From NCBI GenBank assembly GCA_964543385.1, contig CAZIYE010000001.1:180001-212000 (forward strand): a DNA stretch of 32,000 nucleotides, in the 5' to 3' direction. The notes below the pieces were generated by a model. That model worked only from the letters and a program-made list of their open reading frames with translations. It was not told the origin of the DNA and searched no databases. The stretch comes from an uncultured Candidatus Saccharibacteria bacterium. GTDB taxonomy: Bacteria > Patescibacteriota > UBA1384 > XYA2-FULL-43-10 > 1-14-0-10-43-13. Shown piece after piece: positions 20,996-27,317 of this stretch; the first letter of the stretch is position 1, and every line of letters begins with the position of its first letter. The position numbers and the translations under genes are program-made.

Positions 20996-22444
20996 CTAAT
21001 TTCCAGAATTTCCAACCTCTTTTGGACTTGGAATATTTAAATATCTGAATCCTGGTGGCACTTTATCGCCGGTATTATAATCGTAAAAGAAACGTATATT
21101 ATCCGTACCATTATCAATCGAAAAGTTTTTTGCAACAAAAGCACCTTTCATCTGGATGTTGTCAGCACTATTTAAAGTAAGTAAACTATTCTTGCAAAAT
21201 GTCATTGCTTGTATATTATTATTTCCCTTAAAAGCACAATTACCAGAAGAAGAAACAACTCGTACGGTTGCTCGACTAGTCAAAGGAAGAGGGATAACTG
21301 GGGGATTAGCATCTCTCGTACATTCAAGAATAAAATTTGTAGTCCCATTTATTCCATTGGATGCTTGATTTATAAACAGTTGTCGTCTACCAACAATAGA
21401 CGGCACATTTATAGTAAATGGCCAAACAGCAGCGGCTGGATCGCTTTTTAAATCGCACTTATTTGCACCAGTACTCCAGCCAGTTAGGTAAACTATAGAA
21501 TTCAAGGCCATACCCGCTGTGATGCTGCCAAGATCAATAGTTTCGTTATTACCAGCGATAACAGGGTCAAATCCTGGAATAAGTCCCTGCAATTCAACTT
21601 TTGGAGGGATATTTACTGTTATCTCATCATAATTAGTGGAACTATTATATGAACATGTTAGTCTATAGGTATATGTACCTCCAGACATACGTCCAAGGTC
21701 GTAAGTGCCGTTAATTCCCTTCTGACCGCTACTTGACCAGCCGCCGGAGCCAGTAGGTGTGCAAGTAGTAGTAGCCGAGACTCCTTTTACTGACCACCTC
21801 AATCGAGCAAATTGATCATAGTCTATGTCATTAACCGTCTGTACTGTTGGAGTATAAACGCCATCAGCATCATGTGAAATCGGTATTGGAAAAGCAGAGT
21901 TATCTGAATATTCAATTGACAAATCTATATAGGGTTTTAACTCGATTGGCATACTTTTATGTATAAAAACACCATTCCTCTCCACCATAATTACAGCTCT
22001 GTATACCCCAGCAGTAGCATAAGTGAAAGAGAAAGTATGATTTCTCCATAAACTAGATGTATTAATTGAATGATTATAATCATAGTTTCGAGTACAAATT
22101 GCATTTAGATCAGCAACACTATAAACATTTCCCCCATTGTAAGCCGGAGAACAACTTGACCAAAAATAATAATTAATAACACCTCTCCTACCACGAACAT
22201 TGACGTTGAAATTGACCTTGCCGGCCGGAAATGAAGCACTGTCCCAAATTGCACCACTGACCGGTAGTGCACTTGGAGCAGTTGAATAGTCACTTATTAT
22301 CAGCGAATTAGTAAACAAGCTCGCCCCAACAGCAGAGGTTCTGGCATAACGAAGAGCAAAGAATACTAGCACTATTAATACCAGCGCTGCTAACAACATA
22401 ATTGAGCGATTCATTTTATTGATTTTATCTTCAGGTCTTTTCAT
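20996..22444 (-). CDS. Secreted or anchored hypothetical protein (482 aa) with PKD/Ig-like segments
   Basis: N-terminal anchor (IMLLAALVLIVLVFFAL). A PKD-like stretch (HTFSFTYATAGVYRAVIMVERNG) and a Cys-framed Ig-like module (TTCTPTGSGGWSSSG...YTYRLTC). The C-terminus is GAFVAKNFSIDNGTDNIRFFYDYN. No family recognised. Confidence 0.6.
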   Translation of the reverse strand: MKRPEDKINKMNRSIMLLAALVLIVLVFFALRYARTSAVGASLFTNSLIISDYSTAPSALPVSGAIWDSASFPAGKVNFNVNVRGRRGVINYYFWSSCSPAYNGGNVYSVADLNAICTRNYDYNHSINTSSLWRNHTFSFTYATAGVYRAVIMVERNGVFIHKSMPIELKPYIDLSIEYSDNSAFPIPISHDADGVYTPTVQTVNDIDYDQFARLRWSVKGVSATTTCTPTGSGGWSSSGQKGINGTYDLGRMSGGTYTYRLTCSYNSSTNYDEITVNIPPKVELQGLIPGFDPVIAGNNETIDLGSITAGMALNSIVYLTGWSTGANKCDLKSDPAAAVWPFTINVPSIVGRRQLFINQASNGINGTTNFILECTRDANPPVIPLPLTSRATVRVVSSSGNCAFKGNNNIQAMTFCKNSLLTLNSADNIQMKGAFVAKNFSIDNGTDNIRFFYDYNTGDKVPPGFRYLNIPSPKEVGNSGN

Positions 22445-22449
22445 ATTTA

Positions 22450-22743
22450 TTATTTCATAGTAGGCACTGGACCTGTTTTAAATTCATAATCGTGACTGCC
22501 ATTGCGTAGCGATTCAGCCATTGCCTTATATCTTTTTGCAGCATAATGACTGGGTGGAAATTTCTTTGCCTTCTGCTCATATATAAATGCTTGCACTTGA
22601 TTATCTAACCAAGGATATTGATTTTTAATCAATGGAATCATATAGAGATTGTAAAGTAAAATAAACAAGCCCAGTAAAAAAACAATTACTGCTAAAACCG
22701 TCCAAACAACTTTTAAACCGCTTCTTCTATTTTCCACAATCAA
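22450..22743 (-). CDS. Small membrane protein (97 aa), hypothetical
   Basis: One TM (VVWTVLAVIVFLLGLFILLY). Packed tightly between its neighbours (5-nt and 25-nt gaps). Confidence 0.5.
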   Translation of the reverse strand: MIVENRRSGLKVVWTVLAVIVFLLGLFILLYNLYMIPLIKNQYPWLDNQVQAFIYEQKAKKFPPSHYAAKRYKAMAESLRNGSHDYEFKTGPVPTMK

Positions 22744-27221: not shown

Positions 27222-27288
27222 ATCCCCTCTCATTTATATATATTAATGAGTCACGTACACAAACAAACAGCAAGAAATGCTTAAATCT

Positions 27289-27317
27289 ATTATAGATAAT
27301 TCTTTATGTCATGACAA
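27289..27317 (-). promoter_or_regulatory. Strong sigma70-like promoter (TTGTCA, 17-nt spacer, TATAAT) for the 942-aa gene and probably the four genes after it
   Basis: On the plus strand, tgacaa at 27312-27317 and attata at 27289-27294, giving an exactly 17-nt spacer. This is the best consensus match seen in the window. Confidence 0.55.

Follow-up and report, generated by a model that had tools for sequence, protein, structure and literature searches.

The window analysed in this study is a stretch of 32,000 nucleotides (nt) from an uncultured Candidatus Saccharibacteria bacterium (GenBank assembly GCA_964543385.1, contig CAZIYE010000001.1, positions 180,001 to 212,000), and our subject is a block of five genes, here called X946, X316, X167, X97 and X482, that lies immediately ahead of a cluster of type IV pilus (T4P) genes. 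The genome to which the window belongs measures 0.9 Mb and is 98.7% complete, and its relatives carry the labels Candidatus Berkelbacteria or Patescibacteria. All genes of the window have the minus strand as their coding strand, and the positions of the block and of the features around it are collected in Table 1. Within the block the genes are separated by 35, 134, 25 and 5 nt, and a further 169 nt lie between X482 and pilN. A first-pass annotation, made from the sequence alone, had described five co-directional genes of 942, 316, 163, 97 and 482 amino acids (aa), each encoding an N-terminal signal peptide or membrane anchor, that abut pilN, pilO, pilB, pilT and pilC across this last gap. Our re-reading of the sequence bears this out: all five open reading frames (ORFs) are real, with two lengths to be considered for the first (942/946 aa) and the third (163/167 aa), a hydrophobic N-terminal segment is seen in five of five translations, and Pfam confirms the pilus genes beyond the gap. 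The shorter form of X946 is the likely one because its start agrees with database protein P0037 and with the MAKISIS N-termini of the homologues.

Table 1. Positions within the window of the five-gene block and of neighbouring features
Feature	Position	Strand	Description
LamG/Big_2 protein	28474-31923	-	1149 aa
Terminator-like hairpin	27751-27777	-	12 pairs and a T-run
Promoter-like site TTGTCA-N17-TATAAT	27317..27289	-	consensus match, 5' of X946
X946	24393-27233	-	946 aa; likely start ATG 27221, giving 24393..27221 and 942 aa
X946 residues 1-19	27165-27221	-	short N-terminus before the transmembrane helix
X316	23407-24357	-	316 aa
GC-rich compound hairpin	23313..23382	-	in the 134-nt gap between X316 and X167, the fission site
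X167	22769-23272	-	167 aa; 163 aa from ATG 23260; N-terminal transmembrane segment
X97	22450-22743	-	97 aa; small protein with a single transmembrane segment
X482	20996-22444	-	482 aa
X482 residues 1-395	21260..22444	-	N-terminal membrane anchor and fast-evolving variable region
X482 residues 396-482	20996..21259	-	conserved C-terminal solenoid rungs and PPGF tail
Gap before pilN	20827..20995	-	169 nt; one weak promoter-like match (20885..20856); GGAGGG shortly before the pilN ATG
pilN	20068-20826	-	
T4P genes	9667..20826	-	pilN, pilO, 90-aa ORF, pilB, pilT, pilC, two pilins, pilD, four pilins (Pfam)

The block had also been credited with the best promoter match of the window, the TTGTCA-N17-TATAAT site. 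This site scores 11/12 and is the top minus-strand match within 19000-28600, but promoter-like matches in that region barely exceed those in shuffled sequence (43 found against 33.8 +/- 6.2 expected), and we treat it as a consensus match only. No terminator-like site was found in the gap before pilN. Near the start of the block, the sole strong terminator-like site on the coding strand is the hairpin listed in Table 1, which stands between a 197-aa ORF and an ElaB/DUF883-like ORF of 99 aa. When the five proteins were scanned on their own, Pfam, NCBIfam and PHROGs gave no significant match, and a PDB search with them returned nothing useful.

The split solenoid protein

In relatives of the window genome, sequence similar to X316 and the C-terminal domain of X482 are often encoded together as one ORF of 367-404 aa (about 385 aa). 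Residues 8-313 of X316 align with residues 9-305 of one such fused homologue, P0006 (46% identity, E 1e-72, BLASTP), and residues 396-479 of X482 align with its residues 304-383 (61% identity, E 8e-30, BLASTP). X316 and the X482 C-terminus thus match adjacent parts of P0006 and represent what was once a single gene, now in two halves; the earlier picture of five independent proteins has to be corrected on this point. The halves now stand about 2.1 kb apart, with X167, X97 and codons 1-395 of X482 in between. X316 begins with a Sec-type signal peptide (about residues 1-24, the N-terminus reading MINLIKYILLSLIVFAITVPDVRA/AS), continues through a conserved LPxxMVGQ motif and a cysteine-containing domain, and finishes in beta-solenoid rungs that end ...KLGIIVLGS.

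We searched the whole genomes of 40 relatives (counts out of 41 include the window's genome), fetched 20 kb around each of 20 order-level X316 homologues, and mapped all window proteins onto these loci. The same rung-level split is present in 7 of the 20 fetched loci, in addition to the window's own genome, and in every split locus there is a downstream gene with its own N-terminal anchor, a variable body and the conserved C-terminus, 317 to 4017 aa in total. The X482-type C-terminal domain (the last ~85-120 residues), which closes proteins of this same range of lengths, was found in 31/41 genomes. Other members of the family bear inserts of 250-600 aa near the N-terminus instead of a split. 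In a tree of 141 family representatives, built on the N-terminal parts, the split or fused label changes at least 10 times, at least 5 of these changes being forced by well-supported branches, and the window's split clade groups beside the fused proteins P0005 and P0006 with a support of 91. X316-type proteins that stop at the same rung make up about 25 of the 141 representatives and belong to several clades. Fission at the same solenoid rung has thus recurred at least five times. One locus (L029 of genome G031, C1:41500-61499; operon-strand 9592-12803) is split one rung later, where a 352-aa protein ending ...GSFIAKDFDVGS precedes a 708-aa protein that has a PPGF tail; fission is therefore tolerated at more than one rung.

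Comparison with a congener (G001) separates the two parts of X482 clearly: its C-terminal domain is 83% identical and its variable part (residues 1-395) 36-51%, and PilB, PilC and PilT are 79-95% identical in the same comparison. Searched without the C-terminal domain, X482 was found only in the congener and, weakly (26%), in one other genus (G007), and residues 40-395 have no family or PDB match. Residues 1-395 are a candidate binding part, and probably an adhesive one. At the level of sequence, then, the putative dock, that is the C-terminal domain, is conserved and the putative cargo is variable. The 4017-aa ORF with a PPGF tail (G015, locus L022, C2:50000-69999) shares a LamG-like stretch with the 1149-aa LamG/Big_2 protein encoded just upstream of the block in the window (tblastn, p1149 801-898), which suggests a common pool of adhesive domains.

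The fold was modelled with AlphaFold2 on the fused homologue P0006, from a 34-sequence alignment, and not on the window's split proteins. Residues 195-370 form a single beta-solenoid that runs unbroken across the split point, with a predicted local distance difference test (pLDDT) score of 85-95, while the last ~20 residues, PPGF motif included, are of low confidence. Against the PDB, Foldseek matched this model to DUF3494-type ice-binding proteins (probability up to 0.99), to bactofilin and to ComZ (6qvi_C, probability 0.85), all at E>0.1. ComZ (6QVI) was also the best match of the family profile among PDB sequences (E 0.014), in an alignment that covers rungs on either side of the split. DUF7305 was matched by 8 of 34 family members at E<=0.01 (best E 7.9e-6), and two homologues carry a precomputed PF23981 label. 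In a six-frame search of the genome with DUF7305 only the C-terminus of X482 responded (21080-21262; E 0.089, 11.6 bits against a cut-off of 27 bits), and X316 had no match to Pfam DUF7305. The sequence evidence is independent of the fold search, and the two agree. We conclude that the family is distantly related to DUF7305 and to the ComZ/PilX-type solenoid, and we describe X316 together with residues 396-482 of X482 as a split DUF7305/ComZ-like solenoid protein. The first-pass statement that none of the five proteins matches a known family therefore holds for the window proteins scanned alone but not for the wider family. Its suggestion of beta-helix-like or Ig/PKD-like segments in X946, X316 and X482 is supported by AlphaFold2 for X946 (see below) and for the fused X316 homologue, including the counterpart of the X482 C-terminus, but the PKD/Ig-like assignment finds no family or PDB match in residues 40-395 of X482.

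The family numbers 637 proteins at E<=1e-3 among 1.84 billion representatives. The prepilin motif G-[FMILVAY]-[TSA]-[LIVM]-x-E was found in the first 45 residues of none of 164 family members; the N-termini that we inspected are Sec-type hydrophobic leaders, and after many of them comes an LPxxMVGQ-like motif. A PP[GSI]F tail ends 131 of the same 164 proteins. It is unlikely to be a sorting signal, since, unlike in PEP-CTERM or LPXTG, no hydrophobic segment comes after it.

For X946 itself, AlphaFold2 (mean pLDDT 73.7) predicts a transmembrane helix (residues 6-36) and, after it, two beta-solenoid modules rich in glycine, which span about residues 90-440 and 540-830; a beta-sandwich forms the C-terminal domain. 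Its homologues have one or two solenoid modules, a conserved N-terminus and the ending ...Y-x-C-K-V-Q, which X946 shares; common to them is also a short cytoplasmic N-terminus of the form M-A-K-I-S-I-S..L..R+K..R before the transmembrane helix. Foldseek returned only Ig-like noise from the PDB, and a profile search of PDB sequences returned nothing. Against BFVD, one module matches a prasinovirus PA14-domain protein (E 3.8e-7), and glycine-rich predicted structures of giant viruses are matched as well. An identification with AgmC was rejected, the NCBIfam model gliding_AgmC_N reaching 26.7 bits against a cut-off of 275 and covering only the glycine-rich residues 210-323. Any role of X946 would have to be read from the fixed position of its gene only.

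Linkage to type IV pilus genes

Homologues of X316 were found in 36/41 genomes and those of X946 in 25/41. In all 20 of the fetched order-level loci the X316 homologue lies directly upstream of pilN-pilO-(p90)-pilB-pilT-pilC-pilins-pilD, and in most of them it is preceded by one or two X946 homologues. The X482-type C-terminal domain comes throughout between the X316-like sequence and pilN. The genes 5' of X946 vary among genomes, several of them being a DinB-like polymerase gene as judged from its N-terminal sequence, and because of this variation we let the conserved block start at X946. Two apparent absences of the module have a visible cause or substitute: in G008 the contig begins inside pilN, and in G024 a 1248-aa protein with a PPPGF tail lies upstream of a pilN-like gene.

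Beyond the order, an evenly drawn set of 301 Patescibacteria genomes contains 41 that match the family profile, most of them by way of the solenoid. Sixteen deeper loci from other orders, classes and families were picked by the solenoid match alone, and in 14 of them the gene lies just upstream of pilN/pilO or pilM-pilN-pilO, and of pilB; the proteins, 500-1800 aa long, have a signal or anchor, and almost every one has a PPGF-type tail. The module is not a hallmark of the phylum, as an unbiased sample of 80 PilB-upstream regions from 44 evenly drawn genomes yielded an ORF with a PP[GSAI]F tail in only 4 of the 44 (the background of this motif being 1 in 362 ORFs). Its distribution is order-wide; it is common in the class, about a tenth of the remaining sampled genomes have it, and nearly all occurrences are linked to pilus genes. 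The module is a conserved neighbour of retractile T4P genes. Since homologues are linked to T4P genes, the connection that the first-pass annotation had drawn to a pilus-associated surface module no longer rests on one locus, and it gains from the distant relationship with ComZ/PilX; X167 and X97, however, were found only in this genus among the 41 genomes and drop out of the conserved core.

The window's own pilus cluster has PilT, lacks pilM, and encodes a PilN without the canonical N-terminal I-N-L-L-P-type motif for docking PilM. A second T4P cluster (G000:C1:450176-455000, locus L033), outside the window, comprises a PilB-like gene (pilB2), pilC2 (411 aa), pilM, a gene for PilN2, pilO2 and an 87-aa ORF. 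Its PilM, of 332 aa (C1:452637-453584), matches PilM_2 over the full length with 100 bits, and the N-terminus of PilN2 is canonical-looking (MTINLIPP). A third PilB-like gene is found at C1:482130-483356. The genome encodes at least two pilus systems, of which only that of the window has PilT and the solenoid module. We rejected the idea that X316 or X482 replaces PilM: both have export signals and no actin fold, Pfam finds no PilM_2 match among the five proteins, all of which carry export signals, and a PilM is encoded in the second cluster.

A candidate pilus-associated module and its alternatives

The candidate phyla radiation (CPR)/Patescibacteria are ultra-small bacteria. Every member cultivated so far lives attached to another microbe, and for attachment and motility the device with the best support is the type IV pilus (PMC12206443, PMC9894109, PMC6744442). 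We favour the reading, to which we would give an even chance of being right, that the block is the upstream, lineage-specific part of a retractile T4P cluster and encodes a non-pilin, Sec-exported, pilus-associated cap or adhesin. Its conserved core consists of two Sec-exported proteins, X946 and the ~385-aa solenoid protein, the C-terminal half of which is predicted to be a triangular beta-solenoid. After export, the C-terminal rungs of X482 would stack on the open end of the X316 solenoid and so restore the ancestral domain. The LPxxMVGQ motif and the PPGF tail may then dock this unit to the pilus machine, most likely at the minor-pilin priming complex of the tip and less likely at the base with PilN/PilO. 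The docked unit would cap the pilus or act as an adhesin without being a pilin, in analogy with PilY1 and the ComZ/PilX solenoids, and the variable region, which reaches up to 4000 aa in relatives, would bind the surface of the host cell. Assembly in trans, location on the pilus and adhesion are the steps of this scheme that we infer.

The closest comparisons are with two solenoid-bearing pilins. ComZ of Thermus thermophilus has a large solenoid within its pilin fold and was argued to sit at the pilus tip (PMC6561018), and cyanobacterial PilX has a triangular, ice-binding-protein-like solenoid, often with lineage-specific domains, and was proposed to replace PilY1 as the cap (PMC13759059). The family studied here resembles both in its predicted triangular beta-solenoid, in its place in a T4P locus and in the lineage-specific domains grafted onto it, its likeness to ice-binding proteins being the one reported for PilX (PMC13759059) and ComZ (PMC6561018). 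Unlike both, it has neither pilin fold nor class III signal, lies beside pilN/pilO and is often encoded by two genes. The family also has a conserved PPGF tail at the C-terminus and an LPxxMVGQ motif at the N-terminus. No earlier description of the module was found in the literature searched, and no papers were returned for DUF7305; the accessory module is new to that literature and extends the ComZ/PilX solenoid theme to a non-pilin form.

PilY1, which caps and primes the pilus together with minor pilins (PMC13759059, PMC12206443), offers an analogy of another kind, in that PilY1/PilC proteins are non-pilin and Sec-exported, with a conserved part presumed to dock and a variable part presumed to bind. 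The analogy would be functional only, as the conserved fold in our family is a predicted solenoid, its gene position differs, and none of the five proteins matches the beta-propeller domain of PilY1/Neisseria PilC in Pfam or NCBIfam. In single-membrane bacteria, adhesive modules on T4P components are exemplified by the modular PilB of Streptococcus sanguinis, with its vWA module (PMC8179133), and by PilX1 and PilX2 of Saccharibacteria, another CPR lineage, PilX2 being a proposed PilY1-like adhesin (PMC12206443). These are true pilins with a fused module, whereas the module described here is a separate secreted protein and its cargo can be a second polypeptide. Bactofilins form cytoplasmic homopolymers by end-to-end stacking of beta-helices; the proposed joining of X316 and X482 rungs would likewise be a contact of helix end with helix end, for which they may serve as a structural precedent only.

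Several observations weigh against our favoured reading. The similarity to ComZ is marginal, both by sequence and by Foldseek (E 0.76), and beta-solenoids readily match one another; the window's own proteins fall below every Pfam threshold, and modelling of the X316 family is of low confidence over the N-terminal half (pLDDT 30-50). ComZ and PilX are defined by a pilin fold and a class III signal, neither of which is present in the family. The known tip proteins PilY1, ComZ and PilX are usually encoded with minor pilins, and the module adjoins the alignment genes pilN/pilO instead. It is not general in Patescibacteria, as the low count of PPGF-tail ORFs upstream of pilB indicates, and in G069 the module is not near any pilB.

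This last locus fits an alternative that we consider unlikely: the proteins could be surface adhesins or surface-layer proteins in their own right that share only their regulation with the pilus and have no physical link to it, acting for instance as short-range adhesins once retraction has brought the cell to its host. Sec signals or anchors are present in all members and a pilin signal in none, some giant versions include LamG-like parts, and the glycine-rich solenoid of X946 resembles predicted surface or fibre-like proteins of giant viruses. For Saccharibacteria, furthermore, a model in two steps has been put forward in which distinct adhesins act at close range (PMC12206443). Yet several families of the order and scattered other lineages retain the position directly 5' of pilN, a tighter arrangement than co-regulation usually requires; the PPGF tail, which is probably unstructured, and the contrast between the conserved dock and the divergent remainder of X482 point to a fixed partner; and the distant homology is to solenoids of pilus tips.

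It is somewhat less likely still, in our view, that X946 and the X316-type solenoid form a static structure around the pilus base, for instance a channel across the wall or S-layer or a stator attached to PilN/PilO, which in a single-membrane CPR cell would take the role of diderm PilP, PilQ and TsaP. The genes stand directly 5' of pilN/pilO (in L070 and L075, of pilM-pilN-pilO), next to the operon of the alignment subcomplex and not to a minor-pilin set, and X946 has its conserved short cytoplasmic N-terminus and transmembrane helix. The window's cluster lacks pilM, its PilN lacks the canonical motif that PilN2 carries, and no secretin turned up among the window ORFs scanned against Pfam. A conduit would, however, be expected to stay constant in size, and the X946 homologues, with one module or two, vary between 238 and 1008 aa in length, the inserts in the solenoid proteins range from 0 to about 3600 aa, and the variable parts evolve fast, as expected of exposed binding proteins. 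Most sampled Patescibacteria, moreover, have T4P without the module, which is thus not needed for pilus passage in general.

Finally, the split could be decay, with X316 left as the remnant of a truncated pseudogene, X482 a surface protein of other origin to which the old 3' end was added, and at most one of the two functional. This is highly improbable: X167, inside the inserted segment, is disrupted in the congener and a GC-rich hairpin marks the break (see below), but both halves are intact and conserved in the congener, where the dock keeps its high identity, X316-type proteins end at the same rung in several clades, and every order-level split locus that we inspected has a downstream gene that carries the missing C-terminus behind an anchor of its own.

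Our favoured reading, a pilus-associated cap or adhesin, can be carried one step further, to a doubtful but specific proposal in which the module is a split-solenoid dock. A Sec-exported, non-pilin base would accept interchangeable cargo of 300 to 4000 aa that attaches non-covalently by donating its last rungs, an arrangement that would have arisen repeatedly by fission at the same rung. If true, this would be a previously unrecognised way to arm a type IV pilus, by which host-dependent bacteria could swap adhesins and leave the pilus machine untouched.

The part that recognises the host is known for one Saccharibacteria pilin only, and the module is a concrete candidate for another large lineage, the Berkelbacteria-like order, with a putative conserved docking scaffold beside the pilus genes and highly variable, sometimes giant parts. 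Metagenomes can be searched for cargo proteins with the dock of ~85 residues and the PPGF tail. Recurrent fission within a repetitive fold also provides a clean case for testing the reassembly of a beta-solenoid from two polypeptides.

Small ORFs found only in the genus, and the hairpin at the fission site

X167 and X97, which lie between the two halves of the split gene, were found by these sequence searches only in the window's genus among the 41 genomes. The sole homologue of X167 is that of congener G001, where the match (L032, G001:C8, record positions 15629-16100) is broken into frames of 42 and 133 aa by TGA and TAG stops, and X167 may be dispensable or not a real gene. X97 is 70% identical in the same congener, and elsewhere it gave only noise at E~0.006-0.01. 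A layout that otherwise resembles that of the window occurs in two class-level genomes (G142 and G322, loci L066 and L068), where a ~200-aa protein ending in solenoid rungs, a ~150-aa ORF with a single transmembrane segment and a 626-772-aa protein with a PPGF tail lie upstream of pilN/pilO-like genes; the small ORF has no evident similarity to X97 or X167.

The gap between X316 and X167 contains the GC-rich compound hairpin listed in Table 1. Folding of the RNA from 23273-23406 gave a minimum free energy of -35.1 kcal/mol (z -3.9), and none of 200 shuffled sequences folded as well. No U-tract follows the hairpin, which may act in processing or stability or may be left over from the insertion event.

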